DNA from: a bacterium
GTDB taxonomy: Bacteria; Omnitrophota; Gorgyraeia; Zapsychrales; Zapsychraceae
Reading direction: 5' to 3'
NCBI GenBank assembly: GCA_030429765.1
Contig: JAUIER010000002.1
Location: forward strand, 42,126 to 106,125
Length of the DNA: 64,000 nt
Shown here: piece after piece, positions 5,331-63,389 of the stretch
How the letters are laid out: the number at the start of each line of letters is the position of its first letter
Numbering within the stretch: position 1 is the stretch's first letter
The notes under the pieces: generated by a model
What the model was told of the DNA's origin: nothing
Database searches by the model: none
What the model saw: only the letters and a program-made list of their open reading frames with translations
Program-made: the position numbers and the translations under genes

Positions 5331-5699
5331 CTACTCGTTTTCGCCCAAACAATCAACAATCCTCTGAACCAGCTCGGAAATATCGACCGGCTTTACATAA
5401 TACTCCTTGATTCCCTCGAGCTTAAAGACCTCTTCCATCGTCTCATTCCCGGTCAGCACAATGACCGGCGTGTGCTCAAACCCCTCCATCTTCTTCAATT
5501 CCTGCATAAATTCATAGCCATTGAGGTTAGGAAGCCCGATGTCCAGGACAATCAGGTCCGGCCGTTCTGACTGAACCTTTTCCAGACCGATATCGCCATC
5601 CGTGGCGGTGACCACTTCGTACCGGTTCGCGGCCAGACCGAATTTGACCAATGATAAACTGACTTTTTCATCATCCACTACAAGGATTTTGTGTGCCAT
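5331..5699 (-). CDS. Single-domain response regulator (CheY-like receiver)
   Basis: KILVVDDE...LIVLDIGLP...VIVLTG...K, with the canonical DD/D/T/K receiver residues. The ATG at 5699 is preceded by GAGGGTG; the track start at 5711 is a GTG inside that RBS. Confidence 0.85.
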   Translation of the reverse strand: MAHKILVVDDEKVSLSLVKFGLAANRYEVVTATDGDIGLEKVQSERPDLIVLDIGLPNLNGYEFMQELKKMEGFEHTPVIVLTGNETMEEVFKLEGIKEYYVKPVDISELVQRIVDCLGENE

Positions 5700-5809
5700 A
5701 TTGAAATCCACCCTCTGGTTGGGAAATTAGTATCTGAAATTCACAAACGGATCAAAATAATTATTGCTTTAATCATCCTGTCGATTAGAATATTTTAAAG
5801 GAGAAACGA

Positions 5810-6160
5810 ATGAAGCTCAAAGATTTAGTCAAAAAACTTCAATACCTGGACCACAAAACCGCCCGCTGGCTGATGCGTCACTTCTACTTCACGTTTTTTC
5901 AGCTGGTCCTTCTGGTTGTCTTTGTGTTCTGGTTTCGAAATCTCCTTGATGTCATCGACATCAGTTTCCACCGCACCGAAGAAACCACCATTGAAGCCTC
6001 GCTTCACAGCATGAATGTCAACTCCACCATCGTCTGCGTGCTACTTCTACTCAATTCATTCTGGATGCTGTACATCCTGAACGCGATGCAGCGTCTAGCC
6101 AATCTCATCAAAGACGTCAGCTACAATATCAATCGTTTGCGCGCTGAGCGTAAACGCTAA
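5810..6160 (+). CDS. Small membrane protein, hypothetical
   Basis: The ATG at 5810 is preceded by AAAGGAG. Two predicted TM helices. The only plus-strand gene in this 20-kb stretch. Confidence 0.5.
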   Translation: MKLKDLVKKLQYLDHKTARWLMRHFYFTFFQLVLLVVFVFWFRNLLDVIDISFHRTEETTIEASLHSMNVNSTIVCVLLLLNSFWMLYILNAMQRLANLIKDVSYNINRLRAERKR

Positions 6161-7399
6161 TCAAAAATATTCCTGGTATATCTCTTTGACCTTACCGATC
6201 ATCCGGTTGCTCCAACCGGTCTTTCCGTCCTGTGTCACACCGTATCGCATTGAATCTGAAAAACCTTTTTGCGCCAAACCAATAGCCGACGAATATAGCG
6301 CGGTATTGGAAACATTCTTGTGATTCAGCCGATTGATCTGCGCCAGCGTTACGGGCATATTAGTGCGCTCTTCAATCAGCTCAATCAAGCCGGGCAGCAG
6401 CGATCCACCGCCGATCATTTTAACACCATGATGTATGTGTCCGTAATAGCCCGAGTCCGTCAGCACCTGATCGATTGCATCTACCAGCTCCAGTATTTCC
6501 TCTTCAATCGCCTCATAAATATCCATACGCCTCACGGGAGTGTACGCCTCTTCCCGCTTCACCAGGATTTCCTCCTCAGGTTCGATCTGTGACGCATTCG
6601 CCGTGGCGTAGGAGCGCTTGATCTCCTCGGCGAGGTCGACCGATAACTTCAAATGCTTCGCGATCCGACACGTGAGACTGTATCCCCCCGACGGGATCGT
6701 TTCCATGTGACGAAGAATGCCGTCCTTAAAAATCAGGACACTTGTAATCTTGGCGCCGATATCTATCATCACAATCCCGCCCTGCTTTTCCTGATCACTC
6801 AGGATCAGGTCGCCGGCGACAAAACTGCTGAAATAAAGCTCCGTCACATCGTAACCGGCATGATTGATCGACTTGAGAATATTTTTGATCCGATCGACAT
6901 TGGACACCAGCATCAATGACTCAACCGCTAACTTGCGGCCGTACAGACCGATGGGATTTGTTGCCGAATTAACATCATCGACTTCATAAATCTGCGGCAT
7001 TTCATGGAGAACTTCTTCTTCCATCCGTACGCCCAGTAGACGCGCCTGCTTGTTGAGGCGACGCAGATCCTTCTCGGCAATCACCTTGTTCCCCCGGTCA
7101 ACCAGCGGAATCGCGGTCGACGATTTGCGCACATCAATCAGACTTCCATCCACGCCGACAAAAAGTTCTTTGCTGCGGATACCGGTCTTATCCGCCAACT
7201 CAGTTAACGCGTGACTGATACATTCCGAGAACTCATTAAGATCGCTGACGGATGAGTTCTTGAACCCATGAACCGCATGTTCAAAGGCGCCTACAATTTC
7301 CGTCGAGGCATCCTTGACCTTAACGACACCGACCTTAAACCGATGCGCGCCCAGATCCAGCCCGCAATAGTATTTATCATTCAGCACTCTGTTTAACAT
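6161..7399 (-). CDS. ftsA: Cell division protein FtsA
   Basis: Actin-fold motifs GLDLG, DIGAKITS and GGGSLLPGL, and a position after ftsQ in the dcw cluster. Confidence 0.9.
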   Translation of the reverse strand: MLNRVLNDKYYCGLDLGAHRFKVGVVKVKDASTEIVGAFEHAVHGFKNSSVSDLNEFSECISHALTELADKTGIRSKELFVGVDGSLIDVRKSSTAIPLVDRGNKVIAEKDLRRLNKQARLLGVRMEEEVLHEMPQIYEVDDVNSATNPIGLYGRKLAVESLMLVSNVDRIKNILKSINHAGYDVTELYFSSFVAGDLILSDQEKQGGIVMIDIGAKITSVLIFKDGILRHMETIPSGGYSLTCRIAKHLKLSVDLAEEIKRSYATANASQIEPEEEILVKREEAYTPVRRMDIYEAIEEEILELVDAIDQVLTDSGYYGHIHHGVKMIGGGSLLPGLIELIEERTNMPVTLAQINRLNHKNVSNTALYSSAIGLAQKGFSDSMRYGVTQDGKTGWSNRMIGKVKEIYQEYF

Positions 7400-52676: not shown

Positions 52677-53096
52677 TTATGATTTTTTCGCCCCTGTAGA
52701 CTTTTTTGCGGTTTTTTTGCGTGTTTTGGTCGTCTTTTTAGCGGGCGACTTGCGCTTAGCTGTTTTCTTAGCGGTCTTTTTGGCCGACTTCTTCAGCTGG
52801 CTCTTGATTGATTTCTGCTCGGCATCAATCTTGTGATAATCCTCAATCAGGCCTTTAAGGGCCGCGGTAGGCTTAGTCAAGTCCTTGAGCTTAACAACTT
52901 CCTTACCGATTTGATAGTACAGCTTCTCCTTCTTGAGCCCCACGGCTGTCGAGTCGAGATGAATCTTGCTCTGGTGTGTGAACTTAAGGAGCTCCTCCTC
53001 ACCCTTCTTGGCCAATTTGGAGGCTTCCTTGCCGAACTTGGCGAGCTGCTTTTTGGTCTTTTCCCATTCTGATTTTACATCATAATGTTTTGACAT
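52677..53096 (-). CDS. Lysine-rich protein with histone H1/Hc1-like C-terminal tail (KKTAKK repeats)
   Basis: Helical N-terminal 90 aa, then SAKKTAKKTAKRKSPAKKTTKTRKKTAKKSTGAKKS. Confidence 0.5.
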   Translation of the reverse strand: MSKHYDVKSEWEKTKKQLAKFGKEASKLAKKGEEELLKFTHQSKIHLDSTAVGLKKEKLYYQIGKEVVKLKDLTKPTAALKGLIEDYHKIDAEQKSIKSQLKKSAKKTAKKTAKRKSPAKKTTKTRKKTAKKSTGAKKS

Positions 53097-53958: not shown

Positions 53959-56157
53959 CTAGATACAGTTGTTGGTTCCGCCTGTGTCACAATTTCCACT
54001 ACAACACTCACCATTACTTGCACAAGCATTGCCATTATCTGTACAACACACATTGGAGACACAACTTTCTGTTCCAGCACATCCACCGCAAGTTGCCGTC
54101 CCACCGCATCCATCTGGGAAGCTACCACAATTGCCTGGTCCGCAGGTCAGAGGTGTACAGCATGAGTTGGAGACACATACATCACCCGGCGTCGGACATG
54201 CCCCGCAATTCAATGTGCCCCCGCAACCATCCGGAATACCTGAACCACAGTCTCCCGCGTTACAGGTGGCAGGAGTACAACAAGTGCTCGCATTACACAC
54301 GTCGCCAGGCGTTGGACATGCTCCGCAGTTTATGGTAGATCCGCAACCGTCCGGAATACCGGGCCCACATTGCCCCGGCCCGCAAGTTGACGGCGTACAA
54401 CACGTATTTGAAACACATACATCACTTGGCCCCGGGCAAACACCACAATCTGTATCGGGAATCCCCGGACAACCGGAATTAATCGACCCACAATCGCCGG
54501 CAACACACGCGTAAGGTGCGCAGCATGTTTGCGTCGCGTCACAGACGTCCGGCAATGTACATGAACCACAGTCTACGTCTGGAATTCCCGGACATCCGGA
54601 TGGGAAAATTCCACAATCCGTTGGCGCACATTGATGCGGAGTACAACAATTCTGCGATGTATCACAAACCTCCGGCAAACTACATCCGCCACAGTCAACA
54701 TCAGGGATTGTCGGACAACCTGAAGGGAATGTCCCACAATTAGTCGCTGTACATTGGTATGGAAGACAACAATTACTTGGTGTGATAAACTGCTCTGGCG
54801 TCTCACCATTCCCGACTGGACCACCAACCACTACACATACTTCAGCCCCGGGACATGAAGTGCCGCAATCATGAATATCGTCGCAATTGTCAAACGTCTC
54901 GCCACATGTTGGATGACTACAGGTTATGGATGGATTCTGAGGCGTACATACACATTGGTTACCACTCGGATTTTGAAAACAACTTTCGTTCGCATTGCAC
55001 AAGTCAGGACAAATGATCGTCTGACCACAATTGTTGACAGCTGGGCCGCACTGATGGATTTCGGTCGGAGGGACTCCGCATGTGGTTTGCCATGGATCAG
55101 GCGAACACCCGGAACATGTCGTTCCCACACACACATTGGCTCCTGTACAAGTGTCTGGACATGTTACATTGTTTCCACAGTTGTCCACGGCCGGACCACA
55201 TTCCTGACCTAGGCACGTTATTCCAAGGGGCTCGGGGATACATACGCAGGAATTACCCGAGCATCCCTGGGGTGGACTCATGAGAGCGCATGTATCAGGG
55301 CAGGTAACTGTTTGACCACAATTATTAACCGCCGTACCGCATGACACTCCCGAACATGTCGTTGACAACGGCTCAGGCGCACAATTACATAGGTTACCGA
55401 CACATACATCTGGAGGTGTACACGTATCCGGACAGCTGACAATTTGCCCACAATTATTCGTGGCATTTCCACACTCCAATCCCGAACACGTCGTTCCAAT
55501 GGCATCAGGCGTACAACAGCTATTTCCCTGACAGACATCACCAGGCCCACATGTGTTTGGACAAGTAACATTTTGGAAGCAGTTATTGACAGCCGGACCA
55601 CACGCTATACCAGTACAAGTTGTTCCCAACGCCTCGGCCGTACAGGAGCATACATTTCCTGAACAGGTGTCCGGAGGAGCACATCCCCCGCAATTGACAA
55701 GCGTACCACATCCATCATCGATGGATCCACAAGCCAATCCACCACAAGGATTGGTTGGAATACACACACACGTGTTGCCCACACACCCCAAAGGTGACAC
55801 ACAACTACCGCAATTCAGCAAGACGCCACAACCATCATTTATGGTACCACATTCGATAGGACCACCGCAGCTATTGGAAGGAACACAACCCGTGGAGCAA
55901 TCGGCCGCACAAGTTGCATTTTCACCGGGTTCACAACACCCGTTACCACATGTAGGAGTACACCCCGAAGTAAGATCAAAACAAACACCATCGGCCATAC
56001 ACTCAATCCCGCGGACGGCATTCTCAAGTGAATCATCCATGGATCGCTCAAGCAATCCGCCTGGCGACATCGCCCAGACGATCAGCCCGACGATGACGGA
56101 AAAAAGCAGCAAGTACTCGACAAGCTGCTGGCCAATTTTGTTTGTTTTAAGGAGCAT
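53959..56157 (-). CDS. TadE/Flp-pseudopilin-like N-terminus fused to about 680 aa of cysteine-rich tandem repeats (secreted or surface protein)
   Basis: The N-terminus MLLKTNKIG/QQLVEYLLLFSVIVGLIV matches the TadE-like class III signal G-xxxxEY plus a hydrophobic helix. It is followed by about 6 repeats of the type TTCSGxxCGxAVNNCGQxVxCPDTC...VCxGNxC. About 7 further repeats are of the type CCTPxxCxxGxCGSxxxGCPGIPDxDCGxCxxPxDVC. Cys is roughly 20% of residues. ATG at 56157; the track TTG is at 56163. Confidence 0.7.
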   Translation of the reverse strand: MLLKTNKIGQQLVEYLLLFSVIVGLIVWAMSPGGLLERSMDDSLENAVRGIECMADGVCFDLTSGCTPTCGNGCCEPGENATCAADCSTGCVPSNSCGGPIECGTINDGCGVLLNCGSCVSPLGCVGNTCVCIPTNPCGGLACGSIDDGCGTLVNCGGCAPPDTCSGNVCSCTAEALGTTCTGIACGPAVNNCFQNVTCPNTCGPGDVCQGNSCCTPDAIGTTCSGLECGNATNNCGQIVSCPDTCTPPDVCVGNLCNCAPEPLSTTCSGVSCGTAVNNCGQTVTCPDTCALMSPPQGCSGNSCVCIPEPLGITCLGQECGPAVDNCGNNVTCPDTCTGANVCVGTTCSGCSPDPWQTTCGVPPTEIHQCGPAVNNCGQTIICPDLCNANESCFQNPSGNQCVCTPQNPSITCSHPTCGETFDNCDDIHDCGTSCPGAEVCVVVGGPVGNGETPEQFITPSNCCLPYQCTATNCGTFPSGCPTIPDVDCGGCSLPEVCDTSQNCCTPHQCAPTDCGIFPSGCPGIPDVDCGSCTLPDVCDATQTCCAPYACVAGDCGSINSGCPGIPDTDCGVCPGPSDVCVSNTCCTPSTCGPGQCGPGIPDGCGSTINCGACPTPGDVCNASTCCTPATCNAGDCGSGIPDGCGGTLNCGACPTPGDVCVSNSCCTPLTCGPGNCGSFPDGCGGTATCGGCAGTESCVSNVCCTDNGNACASNGECCSGNCDTGGTNNCI
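53975..55880 (-). repeat. Intragenic tandem coding repeats (about 105-120 bp units, two families) in the Cys-rich gene
   Basis: Direct reading of the translated repeats. Many spurious ORFs in other frames on both strands (e.g. 53969..54514 +, 55553..56188 +) reflect repetitive, stop-poor DNA. Confidence 0.75.
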
Positions 56158-56330
56158 ACGCAATCTCTGGCAAAACCAGTTAGGTTAAACACCCTATAAT
56201 TATACCCAAAAAGTTCGGTACACACTAGAATTATTTTGGAATCCCTGAGGTTGAGATTTTCACATATTTCCGGTCAATATCTAAGTATAACACAAGTAGG
56301 GAAGAAATCCGAACCCTGAGGGCCCAAGGA

Positions 56331-56975
56331 TCAGTTCACCCGAAATACCTTATCCCCTACTCTGACAGGCTTTTTAAGCTTAACTCCCACCAGCTGGCCA
56401 CGTTTGGCCGACTTGACCTCCACGCTTTCGATCTGCAACGATTCAATGGTCTCAAGATTATCCGTCTGTTTACCCTTTATATTGATCTGGTCCCCCAACT
56501 TTATTGACGTCTTATTGACCTTGATCACACACACTTTGATCTTGGAGAAATAGTGGGTCACTTCTCCAACGAGCGACGAGGCCGCCGATTTTGCACGAGC
56601 CCCCTTGGAGGCTGACTTCTTTTTGGTGGCAGCGACCTTCTTTTTAGCCGGAGCTTTCTTCGGCGCCGACTTTCGTTTGGCTGCGGGGCTGGACTTGGCT
56701 GGTGACTTTTTGGCCTTCGCCGGTGTATTCTTTCGACGATCACTCGAACTCGTCGAGCTTCGTCGAGCGCCTGAACTCTTTCGGGGAGTGGCTTTGGACT
56801 TAGTGGTCGTCGATCTTGAGCGAGATGATGATGAACGCGAAGGTTTGGCTCGGGCGGCTTTGGTTTTGGTGGATTGAACTCTGGACTTGTTGTAACGCGT
56901 TGGTCGAACGACCGTGTCTGATGAACCGGCAAACCAACTCTTGACTGTATCGATGATTTGGTTGAGGAAATCCAT
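56331..56975 (-). CDS. Basic, Ser/Lys/Ala/Arg-rich intrinsically disordered protein with C-terminal small beta-barrel domain
   Basis: Residues 25-140 are low-complexity basic (SRSSSSRSRSTTTKSKATPRKSS...AKKSPAKSSPAAKRKSAPKKAPAKKK). The C-terminal 75 aa is a GD-containing beta-hairpin domain (KLGDQINIKG...VRVGDKVFRV). Confidence 0.5.
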   Translation of the reverse strand: MDFLNQIIDTVKSWFAGSSDTVVRPTRYNKSRVQSTKTKAARAKPSRSSSSRSRSTTTKSKATPRKSSGARRSSTSSSDRRKNTPAKAKKSPAKSSPAAKRKSAPKKAPAKKKVAATKKKSASKGARAKSAASSLVGEVTHYFSKIKVCVIKVNKTSIKLGDQINIKGKQTDNLETIESLQIESVEVKSAKRGQLVGVKLKKPVRVGDKVFRVN

Positions 56976-57056
56976 TTTACCTAACTAGTGGTGTGGAATC
57001 TGCTCCTGGGGGAATCCATTCGATATGCGCTGAATCATTAGTTTCCAATCGTCCCA

Positions 57057-58298
57057 TTATCCAGCGGCCTGCTGATCTCCCGCCGACACTTCGATCAAAG
57101 AATTGATATCCCCGAAAGAATTCCGTTCTTTGCGGGCATTCTTTGGATCTTCCTTCCACACACCGTCAACAATGAACTGATATTTGTAGAGACCCGGCTT
57201 AAGTGGAATCTCCGCCTCCCAGGTGCCGTCCTTTTCATGCATGCGACAGGTGTCATCCAGCGACCAGTCATTAAAACTTCCGGTAACGTAGACTGATTTG
57301 GCTTCCGGAGCATTAATCGAAAATCGGATCTTGCTCAATCCAACCATTTCCTTACGTACAATATCCTGCATTTGCTCGGACATTGGCGCCAAGGCATCCT
57401 CAGAGATCAGCTCTTCCGATTTTGTAGTTTCCGTACGTTCAATGCGATTTTCCCGTCGAACCTCATCTCGAACCACTTCACGGGGCGCTTCGGCAATCTC
57501 TTCCCTAGCTTGATCCTTTTCTTCAGACTTTTCACGATCCAGCCGGTCAAGCAATATAAGCTCTTTGGCCAGACTGAAATAGTCTTTCGATCCGCGGCAG
57601 TATTTGTCATAAGCTGAAACCGTCTTGCCCATAACAGCCGATTCCTTCAATTTGACATTGATGTGGATAATTGTATCGAACATAATCTTTTCAAATCGCT
57701 CTTTAAACGTCGACAGCATCGCAAAAGAGTGGCGAAGGCGTGAATCAAACATCGTCACCAAAATACGGCACTTTACTTCATGATTCAGCCGATCCTTTAC
57801 AAGATTGACGATGTCCGTCAGGTGATCAACACCCTGCATGGAAAAACGGCTGGTTTCCACCGGAATGATCAGCTCATCGCTGACGCGGATGGCGTTGACT
57901 GTCAAAATCCCCAGACTCGGCGGGCAGTCAATAATCACGTAGTCATACCTGTCGTTGAGCGGTTCAATCGCCTCGCGAAGTTTGAGCTCACGGCCAATTT
58001 CATCCGACAACTCCTGCTCCAGGGTTCCAACCAGAACATTTGAGGGAACCAGATCAAAACTATTTTCGACACGTCGGATAATATTTTCGATTTTGAGTTT
58101 GCGAGGGGTCAGCTTAGAAATAACGTTATAGATACTGTCCTGGCTTTCAATATCAAGACCAAGCGACGCGTGAGCTTGTGGGTCCAGATCGAACAATAAA
58201 ACCTTTTGCCCGTTCTGGCTCAGAGCCGACGCCAAATTAATTGCTGTAGTGGTCTTCCCGCATCCACCTTTTTGGTTAGCGACTGAAATTATTTTCAT
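57057..58298 (-). CDS. ParA/MinD-family ATPase fused to a C-terminal CBM48 / AMPK-beta glycogen-binding domain
   Basis: Deviant Walker A KGGCGKTT at residues 10-17. A charged coiled linker follows. The C-terminus VYVTGSFNDWS...PGLYKYQFIVDGVWKEDP aligns to the AMPK beta GBD/CBM48 consensus (VYLSGSFNNW...YKFFVDGQW.HDP). RBS AGGGGG. Confidence 0.85.
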   Translation of the reverse strand: MKIISVANQKGGCGKTTTAINLASALSQNGQKVLLFDLDPQAHASLGLDIESQDSIYNVISKLTPRKLKIENIIRRVENSFDLVPSNVLVGTLEQELSDEIGRELKLREAIEPLNDRYDYVIIDCPPSLGILTVNAIRVSDELIIPVETSRFSMQGVDHLTDIVNLVKDRLNHEVKCRILVTMFDSRLRHSFAMLSTFKERFEKIMFDTIIHINVKLKESAVMGKTVSAYDKYCRGSKDYFSLAKELILLDRLDREKSEEKDQAREEIAEAPREVVRDEVRRENRIERTETTKSEELISEDALAPMSEQMQDIVRKEMVGLSKIRFSINAPEAKSVYVTGSFNDWSLDDTCRMHEKDGTWEAEIPLKPGLYKYQFIVDGVWKEDPKNARKERNSFGDINSLIEVSAGDQQAAG

Positions 58299-58328
58299 AT
58301 TGAAATGCCCCCTAATATTCGTAATGGA

Positions 58329-58910
58329 TTAGTTGGTTGTTGCAAAATTTATATTGTCGATCAAGACAATCCCGCGCTTGTCTTCAACGTTCCAGGACTC
58401 TAAGACAAATGCGACATCTTGAACGCTGGACCAATCAGATATTTCCTTGAATTCCGAAAGCGGAATATGATAGTCCTGCCAGGCCAGATTGACCCCTTCG
58501 ATATAGTGGTAAGCCTCTTCATTGTAACGACTTGTGACAACGACCTTGACTATACCCGGCACGCCTTCCTCCTTGCCCCGCATGGAAAATTCCAGACTTC
58601 CATACTTGCCGACGTCCATATCCGGTATCGACAAGGCAAATCGTTCAACAGGATTGCTCGATCCCTTAAAATCATAGTCAAACCGAACAGCTCCCTGATG
58701 AAGCGAGTAGATGACGTTCTGCTTGAGTTCATCCTTGTTGTGTGTAAGAAAAGCTGTCAGACCATAAAAAGCGCTGGCAAAAATGATCGCCGTGATCAAC
58801 CCGTTGATCAGCAGCCAAGCATTGAATTGCTTTTTGGTTTTGGCATCATCTTTTTTACGCTTGCCCAAGTAAACTTGCGCAAGATGGTCGTAGATATCGT
58901 CTTTGGTCAT
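58329..58910 (-). CDS. Membrane-anchored protein with extracytoplasmic beta-sandwich (CBM-like?) domain, hypothetical
   Basis: Lys-rich N-terminus, one TM (WLLINGLITAIIFASAFYGLTAF), then a 130-aa domain rich in beta-strand patterning. First gene of the cluster, preceded by an about 200-bp AT-rich region. Confidence 0.45.
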   Translation of the reverse strand: MTKDDIYDHLAQVYLGKRKKDDAKTKKQFNAWLLINGLITAIIFASAFYGLTAFLTHNKDELKQNVIYSLHQGAVRFDYDFKGSSNPVERFALSIPDMDVGKYGSLEFSMRGKEEGVPGIVKVVVTSRYNEEAYHYIEGVNLAWQDYHIPLSEFKEISDWSSVQDVAFVLESWNVEDKRGIVLIDNINFATTN

Positions 58911-59145: not shown

Positions 59146-59178
59146 AAAAAAAGCCCCTGCCGATTTCTCGACAGGGGC
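59146..59178 (-). terminator. Rho-independent terminator after the OMP gene
   Basis: On the minus strand: GCCCCTG-tcgagaaatcgg-CAGGGGC followed by TTTTTTT, 27 nt after the stop codon. Confidence 0.8.
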
Positions 59179-59204
59179 TTGATCTATAATCGATCAACTA
59201 ACGA

Positions 59205-60575
59205 TTAGAATGCAACGTTCATGTTAACCAATACTTGTTTGGCTGATGAATCGTTTTCGCTTTCCCAGATACTTCCTGGTAAAAACCATCCAACGCTAGC
59301 ACCGATTTGTACATCTTCAGTGTAGTCATAAGACAGGTCAAAGTTAAACTCTTTCCCGATGTGTCCACTGTTGTTGTTTGTTGCCAATGACAGTGTTGTT
59401 CCATCTGGCTGTCGGATTGACTTTGATCCGAATTTTGTGTTTCTTTCATTCCACAGGCTAGTGATTCCAAGACGTGCAGTTACGTCTTCCATCGGCTCAG
59501 CCATTAGGTAAAGCGAGTGGATTTCCATGTTTGTTAGATCAAACAATGAATTGTAGATATGTCCACCACCTTGTGCTTCGAAGAATGGATCCCATCCAGT
59601 CCAGTCAGTTTGAGATGTAGAGTTATCCTCTTCACCTGTAACCTTGGTGAAGATGTACTGAGCCACTGGCTTGTACTCTTCTAGAGCTGGGATTTGGTAG
59701 TTTACGATACCCTGGAAGGCCCAAGCGCTTCTTTTTCGATTGGCGTTCGTTGTAGACGAAAGTCTCTTACGTCCACCTTGGTGAGCCATTTCGAACTGAA
59801 TGTTCAGGTTTTCCAATGGGTTAGTGCTGGCGCGAACCCCTGTTACCTTGATGTAGTCAGTTTGCGCTCCAGTTACGTTATCGTTGTCTTCTTTGTTGCG
59901 TGATTTATAGAAGTACGCTTCCACAACTGAGTCCATATCGTCACCCAATTGGTAGTTGGCGTTAACCCCCCATAGATCGATGTCATCATCTAGGTCAGAC
60001 AATGAAACCGTGTTTTGGTCGATCTTTGAGTAGAATACTTCTACAGTTAGCGGATTGTAATCGAAGATCGCTCGGATCGCATCAATTGCAGTCTGCTTCG
60101 TTAGATCTTGAGCGATTCCATTGATACCTGAGTCACCCGGTGCCAAGTTGTTGGCTCCAGTTGCGTCAAATACCAATCCGTTTCCGTATGAAAACGTCTG
60201 GCGCCCCACAACTAGTGTAAGTGGAGAGTACAGCATTTCCTTTAGTGTTACATAGGCCAAGTGAAGATCAACGTCAGACGATGATGTCGTGTTGTCGGCA
60301 TTCCATCCTCTTTCAGTGATCAGCGCGATCGTTACGAATACTTGGTCTGTAAGGTCAGCATCAACTTGAAGACCTGTCTGGTTGATGAACAGGCTTTGCT
60401 CATCTTGAACGCGGTTAGGCGCGATACCAGCTTTTGAACCCAAGTTGAAATTGTTGCGGTAAATATAAGTGTTGTCAGTCCATCCACTTATCTTTACGTT
60501 TTGAACGCTAGCAAATGCCGGTACCGCTGATAGAGCGACAGCCGCAGCAGCTGCTAATACGAATAATTTTCTCAT
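59205..60575 (-). CDS. Outer-membrane beta-barrel porin (signal peptide, C-terminal aromatic Phe)
   Basis: ATG at 60575 with a GGAGGAG RBS. Signal peptide MRKLFVLAAAAAVALSAVPAFA. Alternating amphipathic beta-strands ending ...VLVNMNVAF. Confidence 0.7.
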   Translation of the reverse strand: MRKLFVLAAAAAVALSAVPAFASVQNVKISGWTDNTYIYRNNFNLGSKAGIAPNRVQDEQSLFINQTGLQVDADLTDQVFVTIALITERGWNADNTTSSSDVDLHLAYVTLKEMLYSPLTLVVGRQTFSYGNGLVFDATGANNLAPGDSGINGIAQDLTKQTAIDAIRAIFDYNPLTVEVFYSKIDQNTVSLSDLDDDIDLWGVNANYQLGDDMDSVVEAYFYKSRNKEDNDNVTGAQTDYIKVTGVRASTNPLENLNIQFEMAHQGGRKRLSSTTNANRKRSAWAFQGIVNYQIPALEEYKPVAQYIFTKVTGEEDNSTSQTDWTGWDPFFEAQGGGHIYNSLFDLTNMEIHSLYLMAEPMEDVTARLGITSLWNERNTKFGSKSIRQPDGTTLSLATNNNSGHIGKEFNFDLSYDYTEDVQIGASVGWFLPGSIWESENDSSAKQVLVNMNVAF

Positions 60576-60927
60576 TATTTCTCCTCCAAAAAGGTAAATA
60601 ACTACTTCAGATTTTGATATATTCAACTAGACGATCTAAGGTTATGTCTAGAGATTTACATATTAGGTTGACCAGTTTACTCGACGATTCGACAATAATG
60701 TTTTTTACCATCCCCCCTTTCTTATTCGTATATTTGAATCATCACTGGTATTGCTCTCACGGGCATATACTCGCCGTAAATACAAATAATTGCAATTCTT
60801 AACGTATAGCGATACGCATAGCTCCGCTGAAAACAAATGGTTATTCGTTGTTTTTATCACACGCTAACGGCAGTGTCAACAAAATTTGATTTTATTTTAA
60901 CTTGCAATTTTTTGCGCTACTCTCCCG

Positions 60928-61720: not shown

Positions 61721-62572
61721 CTATACCTTTGCTGTTGAATCCCGTTTCATCAGTTTGGTGGCCAATACTTCCTTGTATGGAAGCTGAAGCTGCCCGCGGG
61801 CAATCTGAAATAATTTTTCAGATCCCAACCGCCCCATCTCCACCAGCGGCTGCGACACCGTCGTGAGCTTGATGGAACCGCTGCTGGCCATCGGATTGTC
61901 ATCGAACCCCACGATCGAAAGCTCCTGCGGGACCTTGATTTTGAGAGATTGCGCGACATCATAAACCTCCAAGGCCATGACATCTGACCCGGCAAAGATG
62001 GCCGTGGGACGATCTTTGAGCTTTAACAATTTTTTGGCCGCGGCCCGGGCGGGCGTCCTTAAAAAATCACCGAAGGTGATATATTTGCGAGAAGTCTTGA
62101 TATCCTTGTCTTCCAGCGCCTCACGAAAACCCTCAAGCCTTTTAAGACCGGCCTGCGTTGAAATATCTCCCGCGACCGTGGCAATCTTTCGATGACCTAA
62201 TCGATAAAGGTGCTCAACAATCGTTTTCGCCGCCTTTTTGTTATCCACCGCCACATAGTTGATCGGCTCTTCCAGCATATTGTTCAGGACCAGACACGGC
62301 ACACCGCGGCGAATGGCCTTTTTCACATTACTGAGATCATTATCAATATCGGCAAACAGGATGCCATCAATGAAGTTTGGATCCATTAAAGACGAATCTA
62401 ACCATCCCTGATGATTATTCCGATCGACGATATGAATCAAATAATCCGCGTTTAATCGGCTAGCGGTCAGGCTGACGCCCCGAATGATTTCGCCGGAGTA
62501 GTAGGAATGAAAGATATCTTCAAAGCGAGGAATAACAAGGACAAATGTTAGTTTGCGTTTTTTACTAGTCAA
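61721..62572 (-). CDS. LacI/PurR-type periplasmic-binding-fold ligand-binding domain protein lacking the N-terminal HTH
   Basis: Peripla_BP-like domain (IATVAGDISTQAGLKRLEGF..., IFAGSDVMAL, SIVGFDD). The track ORF start (62749) overlaps the sigma-factor gene by 185 nt and encodes no HTH. The proposed start is a TTG at 62572, an 8-nt overlap with the sigma gene stop. The start is uncertain. Confidence 0.55.
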   Translation of the reverse strand: MTSKKRKLTFVLVIPRFEDIFHSYYSGEIIRGVSLTASRLNADYLIHIVDRNNHQGWLDSSLMDPNFIDGILFADIDNDLSNVKKAIRRGVPCLVLNNMLEEPINYVAVDNKKAAKTIVEHLYRLGHRKIATVAGDISTQAGLKRLEGFREALEDKDIKTSRKYITFGDFLRTPARAAAKKLLKLKDRPTAIFAGSDVMALEVYDVAQSLKIKVPQELSIVGFDDNPMASSGSIKLTTVSQPLVEMGRLGSEKLFQIARGQLQLPYKEVLATKLMKRDSTAKV

Positions 62573-63389
62573 CGTCTGGGTTATTCTCTTTTTGTTCGAT
62601 GATTTGACGAATTTTCTTGATGGTCCCGGCCTCAATCTGCCGGACACGTTCGCGTGAAATACCGAGGACCTTGGCAATCTCAGCCAGCGTGCAGGCATCC
62701 CCGCCGCCAAGACCGTAACGCATCTCGAGTATCTTGCGTTCACGCTCATTGAGCAGTTTTAAAAAACCGATGGCGCGCTCTTTGTTGAAAAACTTTTCGA
62801 GTTCCTCGTCCGGACTCACGATGTTCTTATCTTCGATGATATCCTTGACTTGACCGTCACCATCATCACCAATCGGAGCATCCAGACTCGACATCTTGGC
62901 GATGGAATTTTCCAATTCACGGACTTTGTCGACGGAAACTTTGAGCTTTTTGGCGATTTCGCCGATGCGCGGCTTACGCTTATATTGATGCGTCAGCTTT
63001 TCGATGACCTTCTTATACTTGAGGATATCCTCGTTCATGTAGACCGGAACACGGATCATCTTGCCCTGATCGATAATCGCGCGGGAGATCCCCTGCTTGA
63101 TCCACCAGGCCGCGTATGTAGAAAATCGAAATCCACGTTCGGGATCGAATTTCTCCACACTTTTCATCAACCCGATATTCCCCTCTTCTATTAAATCGCT
63201 GAGGGGAACACCGAGATTGATATAGCGCTTGGCAATACTGATCACCAACCTTAAATTGGACCGAATCATCTTGTTACGTGCATCCTGATCGCCCTTCTGA
63301 ACCTTCCGGGCCAGATCAACTTCTTCCTCGGCTGTCAGCAGAGGAATCGGACGAACATCACGCAAATAAGCCTTTATCGGATCTGTCAT
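62565..63389 (-). CDS. RNA polymerase sigma factor, sigma-70 family (regions 1.2-4, no region 1.1)
   Basis: Region 2 (DLIEEGNIGLMKSVEKFDPERGFRFSTYAAWWIKQ), region 3, and region 4 HTH (TLAEIAKVLGISRERVRQIEAGTIKKIRQ). Confidence 0.9.
   Translation of the reverse strand: MTDPIKAYLRDVRPIPLLTAEEEVDLARKVQKGDQDARNKMIRSNLRLVISIAKRYINLGVPLSDLIEEGNIGLMKSVEKFDPERGFRFSTYAAWWIKQGISRAIIDQGKMIRVPVYMNEDILKYKKVIEKLTHQYKRKPRIGEIAKKLKVSVDKVRELENSIAKMSSLDAPIGDDGDGQVKDIIEDKNIVSPDEELEKFFNKERAIGFLKLLNERERKILEMRYGLGGGDACTLAEIAKVLGISRERVRQIEAGTIKKIRQIIEQKENNPDVD

Follow-up and report, generated by a model that had tools for sequence, protein, structure and literature searches.

This analysis deals with three adjacent genes on the minus strand, 58910..56331, of a 64,000-nucleotide stretch of the contig JAUIER010000002.1; the whole stretch is referred to as the window. 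The middle gene encodes a Soj-type ParA ATPase that carries a carbohydrate-binding module (CBM) of family 48 at its C-terminus, and it is accompanied by an upstream gene for a membrane protein and a downstream gene for a strongly basic protein. We consider the chances about even that the three genes constitute an operon for a ParA/MinD-type ATPase system with a cytoplasmic alpha-glucan, namely glycogen, as its cargo. Judging from the sequences, its most likely function would be to tether or position glycogen on the nucleoid in an ATP-dependent manner. Each of the rival explanations discussed below is ranked under this reading. The fusion protein is a conserved family that occurs in multiple phyla and is not peculiar to this genome.

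The fusion protein and its family

The fusion gene and its parts are as follows.

57057..58298, minus strand: ParA-CBM48 fusion gene, 413 aa (open reading frame with Pfam matches to AAA_31, CbiA, AMPK1_CBM and CBM_48)
57549..58298, minus strand: Soj-type ParA ATPase domain, aa 1-250 (PDB sequence and Foldseek matches)
57339..57548, minus strand: C-terminal helix extension and acidic disordered linker, aa 251-320 (AlphaFold2)
57075..57338, minus strand: CBM48/AMPK-beta-type glycogen-binding module, aa 321-408 (Pfam and PDB sequence matches)

The original prediction had placed a ParA ATPase and a C-terminal CBM48 in one open reading frame, and it is borne out, well above chance, by Pfam, by the PDB sequence search and by the AlphaFold2 model. 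The profile search that had been suggested as a check matches both ends of the protein. At the N-terminus, AAA_31 covers residues 1-176 (E=1.5e-55), together with CbiA (E=9e-19), MipZ and other models of the ParA/MinD family. The tail matches CBM48 models above their cutoffs, namely AMPK1_CBM (PF16561) over residues 332-408 (E=1.1e-15; 58.1 bits against a gathering cutoff of 26.8) and CBM_48 (PF02922; 33 bits against 22.4), and it also has a weak CBM53 match. In NCBIfam, the named ParA, RepA and MinD models were matched below threshold only. The AlphaFold2 model, built with 48 homologs, consists of the ParA core, a long helix (240-269), a segment with a confidence score (pLDDT) below 50 at 271-306, and a confident beta-sandwich at 322-404 with a pLDDT of ~90. 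Across the family the linker is 22-140 aa long and rich in E, A, K and P; that of the window protein has an isoelectric point (pI) of 4.6.

At least 120 homolog clusters from Omnitrophota (61-84% identity) were found. All those listed combine PF13614 with PF16561, so a frameshift or an assembly artefact cannot account for the fusion. For the wider family, the counts on loci given in this text rest on the best 80 of at least 589 relatives, taken from a scan of one genome per species in which at least 600 stretches matched. The residue counts come from an alignment of 76 fusion sequences from many phyla, and the counts of neighbour-gene peptides come from 75 loci with 947 other open reading frames as background. 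Nearly all of the best 80 relatives align over residues 1 to ~404 of the fusion and therefore include the CBM. The fusion was found in at least 78 species, which belong to Omnitrophota, Planctomycetota (Phycisphaerae, Sedimentisphaerales, Tepidisphaerales, Pirellulales), Myxococcota, Thermodesulfobacteriota, 'delta proteobacteria', Eisenbacteria, Krumholzibacteriia, Margulisiibacteriota, Rokubacteria, Auribacter, a spirochaete and Gammaproteobacteria including Thiogranum. Public annotations name these proteins 'AAA family ATPase' or 'chromosome partitioning protein'.

In the PDB sequence search of the ATPase domain, ParA-ATP of Myxococcus xanthus (8RAY) is the best match with 182 bits, followed by the Soj proteins of Helicobacter pylori and Thermus thermophilus and then by McdA, MinD, ParF and BcsQ; Foldseek ranks them alike. 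The deviant Walker A sequence KGGCGKTT, which had already been recognised from the DNA, starts at K10 and is invariant (K10-GGCGK15-TT, 76/76), as are D37 and D39 of motif 2 and D124 of Walker B (each 76/76). Three predicted equivalents of DNA-binding residues are also kept: R187, which corresponds to R189 of Bacillus subtilis Soj and R209 of M. xanthus ParA, is Arg in 74/76; K216, which corresponds to M. xanthus R238, is Lys or Arg in 69/76; and K218 is Lys or Arg in 74/76. In B. subtilis Soj, non-specific DNA binding involves R218 in addition to R189. The R238E variant of M. xanthus ParA is deficient in DNA binding (PMC12462528). The sites of the pocket that receives the ParB peptide were mapped from M. 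xanthus ParA (PMC12462528) onto the 76 sequences and are listed with the catalytic residue of motif 2.

M. xanthus L150, ParB-peptide pocket: L/V/I in 76/76
M. xanthus G151, ParB-peptide pocket: G in 70/76
M. xanthus L152, ParB-peptide pocket: L/I/F in 74/76
M. xanthus L192, ParB-peptide pocket: L/C/I in 59/76
M. xanthus Y81, contacts the central arginine of the peptide: Y/F in 73/76
M. xanthus N64, catalytic motif 2: H (window H43) in 75/76

Two residues distinguish the family from Soj. Cys replaces the Val of Walker A at position 13 (58260..58262; 76/76), and His replaces the Asn of motif 2 at position 43 (58170..58172; 75/76).

A chromosomal parAB locus was considered and rejected, as the neighbours of the fusion are other proteins. 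A tblastn search of the 80 loci and the window found no ParB, with a Spo0J query run without a positive control. The original prediction had raised the possibility that homologs lie consistently beside parB or origin genes; no adjacent parB was found in any locus examined, and glucan genes lie nearby in several lineages. Outside Omnitrophota there is little conserved context apart from the partner gene next to the fusion (+1), and the recurrent planctomycete neighbours (PEP-CTERM/P-domain and others) look incidental.

The second question is whether the C-terminal module binds alpha-glucan. A PDB sequence search with the last 114 aa found the CBMs of AMPK beta1 and beta2 (2F15, 1Z0N and others; E ~1e-8), and also the CBM48 of pullulanase and the N-terminal CBM48s of GlgB. 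Equivalent residues were taken from the HMMER alignment with AMPK beta1; L146 and N150 are included for their roles in the beta1-cyclodextrin structure.

AMPK beta1 W100, window W345: W in 75/76
AMPK beta1 K126, window Q374: R/K in 66/76
AMPK beta1 W133, window W381: W in 75/76
AMPK beta1 L146, window F395: F/Y in 63/76
AMPK beta1 G147, window G396: G in 74/76
AMPK beta1 N150, window N399: N/D in 73/76

In AMPK beta1, W100G and K126Q abolish glycogen binding (K126Q in the isolated CBM), and W133L and G147R weaken it (PMC6274970). The two stacking tryptophans are near-invariant over several phyla, which argues for a sugar ligand, and since the ATPase is cytoplasmic and has no signal peptide, the only plausible ligand would be a cytoplasmic alpha-glucan. 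Gln occupies the K126-equivalent position 374 in the window protein and in all 48 close relatives. K372 lies two residues before it on the same face of the strand and may or may not compensate. The claim that the module aligns motif for motif with AMPK beta was thus slightly too strong: W345, W381, G396 and N399 agree, and Q374 does not. Overall, the CBM of the fusion looks functional for sugar, with Q374 as the caveat.

The replacement of a lysine whose change to glutamine kills binding in AMPK beta1 is also what might suggest that the module is an immunoglobulin-like protein-interaction domain which has no carbohydrate binding and serves a protein cargo. The weak Pfam matches to a T9SS plug protein and to CBM53, and the lack of glucan genes in the window, would fit such a domain. 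Near-invariant stacking tryptophans, Gly and Asn over several phyla are, however, hard to explain without a sugar ligand; the lysine position is still R or K in 66/76 family members, and in several genomes the family is independently linked with GH57, DUF4912 and glycogen-synthase-like genes (see below). We therefore regard a protein cargo as very unlikely.

Neighbouring genes and the candidate partner

The features around the fusion gene, in the order of transcription, are the following.

59205..60626, minus strand: Alginate_exp-like outer-membrane porin, given as context (Pfam Alginate_exp, E=1e-15)
59151..59180, minus strand: terminator-like hairpin between the porin gene and the operon (13-bp stem with 8 GC pairs, followed by a T-run)
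58329..58910, minus strand: upstream bitopic membrane protein, 193 aa, candidate partner of the ParA domain (AlphaFold2, synteny)
58821..58910, minus strand: predicted cytoplasmic N-terminal peptide of the membrane protein, aa 1-30
58335..58712, minus strand: predicted periplasmic CBM11/CBM30/CIA30-like beta-sandwich of the membrane protein, aa 67-192
56331..56975, minus strand: downstream basic protein, 214 aa (open reading frame, pI 11.3)
56334..56570, minus strand: EF-Tu-domain-2-like beta-barrel of the basic protein, aa 136-214 (weak GTP_EFTU_D4 match)
56309..56327, minus strand: weaker terminator-like hairpin just past the stop codon of the basic-protein gene, likely the end of the three-gene unit

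The gaps inside the unit 58910..56331 are only 30 bp and 81 bp, and with the flanking hairpins they make the three genes look like one transcription unit. In the Omnitrophota loci L001-L025 the gene order is porin, GH57 (in one clade), a membrane protein of ~190 aa, the fusion, a small membrane protein (14 loci) and the basic protein. The fusion and the basic protein stay together in 18 Omnitrophota loci, which is what the suggested synteny check had looked for. However, synteny in Omnitrophota extends over the entire stretch between ppdK and ftsK, so that gene order alone carries little weight.

The small membrane protein between the fusion and the basic protein is ~108 aa long (…F.L.HAKQGL…; 14 loci within L001-L021). 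The clade of the window does not have it, and the gap at that place is only 81 bp.

More information comes from the proteins encoded next to the fusion in other phyla. Outside Omnitrophota, the gene directly downstream varies among several unrelated families. It may encode a degenerate CbiA/ParA-like protein (~300 aa), a NucS_C-like protein, a planctomycete protein of 470-660 aa or a small protein of 100-180 aa. It was found that nearly all of these proteins open with a peptide of the form (K)LGRGLE[DE][IV]SH[LI]FLS, that is, a LGRGLEDISHLFLS-type peptide. When this pattern and a second one for the Omnitrophota form, both derived post hoc from the same loci, were searched as regular expressions, a same-strand adjacent gene matched in 40/75 loci, compared with 3/947 other open reading frames. 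The neighbour peptides resemble the N-terminal ParA-binding motif of ParB; H. pylori Spo0J opens with ...LGRGLADIF. The ParB motif, which is aliphatic with a central Arg or Lys, is sufficient for stimulation of ParA (PMC12462528).

The commonest partner outside Omnitrophota is itself ParA/MinD-like (weak CbiA match, E=0.0016; +1 in L027, L055, L058 and related loci). Its P-loop is intact in some cases (SGKGVRGKT in L058) and degenerate in others (GNSHDSRDAF in L027). It is often followed by the NucS_C-like protein, and together with the fusion it would form a module of two ATPases, for which no described analogue is obvious.

In Omnitrophota, the upstream membrane protein opens with the invariant peptide MT[RK]D[DE]IYDHLAQVYLGKR in 40 sequences, in all of which I6, Y7, D8, L10, A11, Q12, V13, Y14, G16 and K17 are the same. 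The upstream proteins of the sister lineage open with ...LA[DK]xYF[SN], and with the Omnitrophota peptide they form a graded series towards ISHLFLS. The peptide of the Omnitrophota membrane protein is likely a diverged version of the ParB-like peptide. That the upstream proteins of the sister lineage are remotely homologous to the Omnitrophota membrane protein finds weak to moderate support (hhalign E=1.4e-4, probability 53%). The membrane protein adjoins the fusion in 23/23 Omnitrophota loci in which an open reading frame was called, with a median gap of 20 bp; its 455 homologs are all hypothetical and none has a Pfam domain. AlphaFold2 models it with a pLDDT of 82 as one long helix (3-57) and a beta-sandwich (67-192). 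The helix comprises the cytoplasmic peptide and a transmembrane segment (~31-55), and owing to seven Lys/Arg on the N-terminal flank of this segment the N-terminus is predicted to lie inside the cell. On this sequence evidence, the upstream membrane protein is probably a better partner candidate than the downstream basic protein.

A membrane partner also brings to mind BcsQ, a ParA/MinD-family protein of cellulose secretion, and with it an envelope polysaccharide organiser: the membrane protein would recruit the ATPase and localise or gate glucan synthesis and export, making use of the periplasmic CBM-like domain and the Alginate_exp-like porin while CBM48 holds nascent or primer alpha-glucan in the cytoplasm. 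Pfam CBP_BcsQ matches the fusion with 46.8 bits against a cutoff of 21.3, BcsRQ structures are among the fold matches, the sandwich is predicted to be CBM11/CBM30/CIA30-like and periplasmic, and the porin, plus GH57 in one clade, is directly upstream in conserved order. Nevertheless, we find an organiser of this kind quite unlikely. The similarity to AAA_31 and Soj is far above that to BcsQ, a strong terminator separates the porin from the operon, and the adjacency of the porin weighs little given the phylum-wide synteny. Neither the operon nor its surroundings in the window contain glycosyltransferase, synthase or export genes, and outside Omnitrophota and the sister lineage the partners are cytoplasmic and have no membrane or porin context.

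The downstream protein had been described in the original prediction as basic and disordered. Its pI of 11.3 and the S/K/R-rich N-terminal part agree with this description, but the last ~80 aa are a folded, conserved barrel (the protein ends ...KVFRVN). It starts with a short amphipathic helix, followed by a histone-H1-like region rich in S, K, R, A and P (aa ~20-135); for aa 1-135 the pI is 12.0, the K+R fraction is 0.29 and the S+T fraction is 0.30. Among its 79 homologs, some match PF03144 (EF-Tu domain 2) and one matches PF07382 (HC2, an H1-like nucleoprotein). No ParB/Srx or helix-turn-helix match was found in Pfam or NCBIfam, and no match to an McdB-related family. Besides homology, the McdB criteria applied here were its coiled coil and C-terminal tryptophan.

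It had also been suggested that this protein is a McdB/ParB-type partner, which would link the ATPase to its cargo and stimulate it. The gaps and terminators suggest co-transcription, the gene is conserved downstream of the fusion in 18 Omnitrophota loci, and the N-terminal region is strongly basic (pI 12.0 for aa 1-135). In the clade of the window the protein opens with an amphipathic basic helix, MxFLKxIIxxIKxLF, which is aliphatic and positive like ParA activators (motif in PMC12462528), and some DUF4912 proteins of glycogen clusters have a similar helix with a K-rich N-terminus (L084). In the other Omnitrophota clade, which keeps the ATPase, and in more distant members, the helix is absent and the sequence is K-rich from the start. 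No features of McdB or ParB were found beyond charge: ParB/Srx, helix-turn-helix and coiled-coil features are absent, and the folded part is EF-Tu-domain-2-like. The protein is conserved only within Omnitrophota and does not stand beside the fusion in other phyla; it has 79 members compared with 455 for the upstream protein, and K-rich tails are common in the genome, for example in the product of 52677..53096. The adaptor role is not supported as it was put, and we rate it as rather unlikely.

The gene at 52677..53096 (minus strand) encodes a second H1-like protein within 5 kb. It has 139 aa, a pI of 10.2 and no Pfam match. Its N-terminal part is helical and its C-terminal tail (KKSAKKTAKKTAKRKSPAKKTTKTRKKTAKK) is histone-H1-like, an architecture that recalls nucleoid tethers of the PhaF/AlgP type.

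Glucan gene context and proposed mechanism

One clade of 13 Omnitrophota loci has a GH57 gene (227 bits) inserted between the porin gene and the membrane-protein gene, immediately upstream of the latter. A different glucan context was found in L027, L030, L058, L082 and L083, where a DUF4912 gene and a branching enzyme of the GH57+BE_C type are within 10 kb of the fusion. The sources of these loci are a deep Omnitrophota-labelled lineage, a Thermodesulfobacteriota metagenome-assembled genome and an unclassified bacterium; L082 and L083 are metagenomic relatives of L027. In L030 these genes are joined by a GT4/GT5 glycogen-synthase-like gene and by one for a solo CBM48 protein of 101 aa. Glycogen synthesis genes are reported in most Omnitrophota metagenome-assembled genomes of one study (PMC8542988).

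The DUF4912 proteins of L027, L082 and L083 carry KKLGKGLEDISTLFLS after a K-rich leader. Variants of the peptide are found in L030 (…EQLKTYFING…) and in L085 and L086 (…YKTLQHLFAS…). Peptides on DUF4912 proteins inside glycogen clusters point to glycogen as the object of the system and not only as a signal. In the 80 metagenomic DUF4912 loci (L082-L161), we counted 34 proteins with a Rho_N/SAP-like N-terminus, 5 with a transmembrane anchor and 6 with K-rich H1-like leaders, and the branching enzyme adjoins DUF4912 in 12 of the 38 metagenomic loci that are at least 6 kb long. This suggests that DUF4912, an uncharacterised domain that often has a GH57 branching-enzyme gene beside it, is a glycogen-associated protein with swappable N-terminal localisation modules. 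The literature searched contained nothing relevant on DUF4912, only unrelated mentions.

The idea that DUF4912 proteins generally bear the peptide was only partly borne out, as it is limited to L027, L082 and L083 and to the variants in L030, L085 and L086.

The position of the peptides also bears on the view that the fusion senses glycogen and does not move it. Here CBM48 would report the carbon reserve and modulate an ATPase whose job lies elsewhere, for example in chromosome segregation, in replication control of the Soj-DnaA type or in the placement of the division site. The CBM subtype of AMPK beta does act as a regulatory glycogen sensor (PMC6274970; see also PMC2642990). The ATPase is closest to chromosomal ParA/Soj, its DNA-binding and ParB-pocket residues are kept, and the partner peptide is ParB-like. 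However, no parB or origin-proximal genes adjoin the fusion in the 80 loci, and the protein has signatures of its own (C13 and H43, in 75-76/76). The fusion is also found in phyla that normally have canonical ParAB, which suggests an additional paralog with a dedicated task. As the partner peptides on DUF4912 in glycogen clusters point to glycogen as the object, we consider the sensor unlikely.

For the glycogen ParA system, the following mechanism is proposed. The ATP-bound fusion would dimerise and bind nucleoid DNA non-specifically through the Arg/Lys positions shared with Soj. Its two CBM48 modules, on flexible linkers, would then grip glycogen particles with avidity. Granules tethered to the nucleoid and spread over it would not coalesce and would be inherited by both daughter cells. 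Hydrolysis would be triggered when a neighbouring protein presents its ParB-like peptide; the sequences show this peptide as well as the pocket, and we infer that they interact. In most phyla this peptide would be on a cytoplasmic neighbour, which is a degenerate ParA-like protein, a NucS-like protein or the DUF4912 protein of a glycogen cluster. In Omnitrophota, the diverged peptide on the cytoplasmic tip of the membrane protein may instead lead to release of the ATPase, or to its recruitment, at the inner membrane. The co-transcribed H1-like protein could be a passive DNA tether of the PhaM/PhaF/AlgP kind or a second activator.

Several points weigh against this reading. For the cargo, Q374 sits at the position of K126, and K126Q loses binding in the isolated CBM of beta1. 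The adjacency of GH57 belongs to one clade within a conserved region and is possibly a single evolutionary event, and tblastn found no GH57, DUF4912 or GlgA-like gene in the 64-kb window. For the activator, the peptide patterns are post hoc, about 35 of the 75 loci (mostly Planctomycetota) have no motif-bearing neighbour, and the likeness of the Omnitrophota peptide (IYDHLAQVYLGKR) to the LGRGLEDISHLFLS motif is modest. For the ATPase, the kinetics may differ from those of Soj, with H43 in place of the catalytic Asn. It is not obvious that a ParA bound constitutively to its cargo could run a classical Brownian ratchet, and such a protein may only tether; nor does pure nucleoid positioning account for an activator that is anchored in the membrane and has a periplasmic CBM-like domain. 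All the functional steps for the family rest on sequence and models.

As for the window as a whole, its DNA is chromosomal, nearly all of its genes are on the minus strand, and the closest homologs of its proteins are annotated as Candidatus Omnitrophota/Omnitrophica. It contains the dcw cluster, riboflavin genes, infB, ligA, ftsK, pnp and rpsO. At the end of the dcw cluster (region 5331..7399), the ftsA-like gene 6161..7399 (minus strand) is followed, as judged by eye, by a response-regulator-like open reading frame and not by ftsZ. The gene 61721..62749 (minus strand) for a LacI-type periplasmic-binding-fold protein has 342 aa when the longest open reading frame is called, and it then overlaps the sigma-70 gene 62565..63389 (minus strand) by 185 nt; in an identical public contig it is called as 283 aa and has no helix-turn-helix domain. 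The gene 53959..56163 (minus strand) encodes a 734-aa cysteine-rich protein with many repeats of ~40 aa (…C.P….C.G..CG.A.NNCGQ.V.CPDTC…) and no Pfam match. Its N-terminus (KIGQQLVEYLLLFSVIVGLIV) has Glu at +5 and resembles a class III or type IV pilin signal peptide, and from its sequence the protein may be a giant pilin-like adhesin.

Significance and comparison with known systems

ParA/MinD ATPases position chromosomes, plasmids, carboxysomes, chemoreceptor arrays, flagella and the divisome, and glycogen is the most widespread bacterial carbon store. In the literature search, no ParA/MinD ATPase linked to glycogen or CBM48 was found, and the original prediction was likewise aware of none. 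A 2025 review of organelle positioning does not mention glycogen and leaves open whether the spacing of storage granules depends on energy (PMC13052382). It is a possibility, which we hold with slightly less than even confidence, that the fusion represents the first ATP-driven ParA-type system for a storage polysaccharide, in which a portable ParB-like peptide on varied anchors sets the site of hydrolysis, and that it occurs in no fewer than 78 species, probably in hundreds, of at least 8 phyla. If this is true, the design is new in that cargo adaptor and motor-like ATPase are combined in one chain with a modular activator peptide, and DUF4912 gains its first functional context. It would also hint at how a tiny cell arranges its reserve polymer with respect to nucleoid and membrane, as Omnitrophota are mostly ultra-small uncultured cells. 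Planctomycetota, Myxococcota and Desulfobacterota, in which the family is also found, have cultured members, so that genetics should be possible.

Within the ParA/MinD systems, we rate the fusion as a positioning-type ATPase with a new cargo and a new fused architecture. The closest system in sequence and fold is ParABS with Soj (8RAY, 6IUB, 1WCV), with which it shares the signature lysine, the Asp residues of motif 2, Walker B, the DNA-binding sites and the pocket; the LGRGL-type N-terminal peptide is common to ParB and the fusion partners. The fusion differs from it by the absence of a parB/parS context, by the linker and CBM48, by C13 and H43, and by partners that are not ParB/Srx CTPases. 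McdA, which is among the fold matches, forms with McdB another ParA-family system for a non-DNA cytoplasmic cargo, presumably also with the nucleoid as scaffold and with a partner that has a basic N-terminus. In contrast to McdA-McdB, cargo binding is built into the ATPase, the cargo would be a polysaccharide and not a protein shell, and the activator peptide is ParB-like and is found on varied proteins including a membrane protein.

Polyhydroxybutyrate and polyphosphate granules are tethered to the nucleoid by H1-like proteins that have no ParA homology and no known ATP dependence (PMC13052382). PhaM, PhaF and AlgP are such lysine-rich tethers; the operon described here also appears to encode an H1-like K-rich protein, and the K-rich or Rho_N-like N-termini of some DUF4912 proteins in glycogen clusters recall them. 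The module of the fusion belongs to the same family as those of AMPK beta, PTST, SEX4, LSF1 and the branching enzymes and has the same stacking tryptophans and Gly/Asn, but its fusion partner is a P-loop ATPase and not a glucan enzyme, a phosphatase or a kinase scaffold, and unlike AMPK beta the clade of the window does not have the K126-equivalent lysine. Finally, BcsQ is also a ParA/MinD fold tied to a polysaccharide, and the CBP_BcsQ match is above the cutoff. No bcs genes, such as those for BcsR, BcsE, BcsA and BcsB, were found in the window or the loci, however, the similarity to Soj is much stronger, and the CBM of the fusion is of the alpha-glucan type and cytoplasmic.

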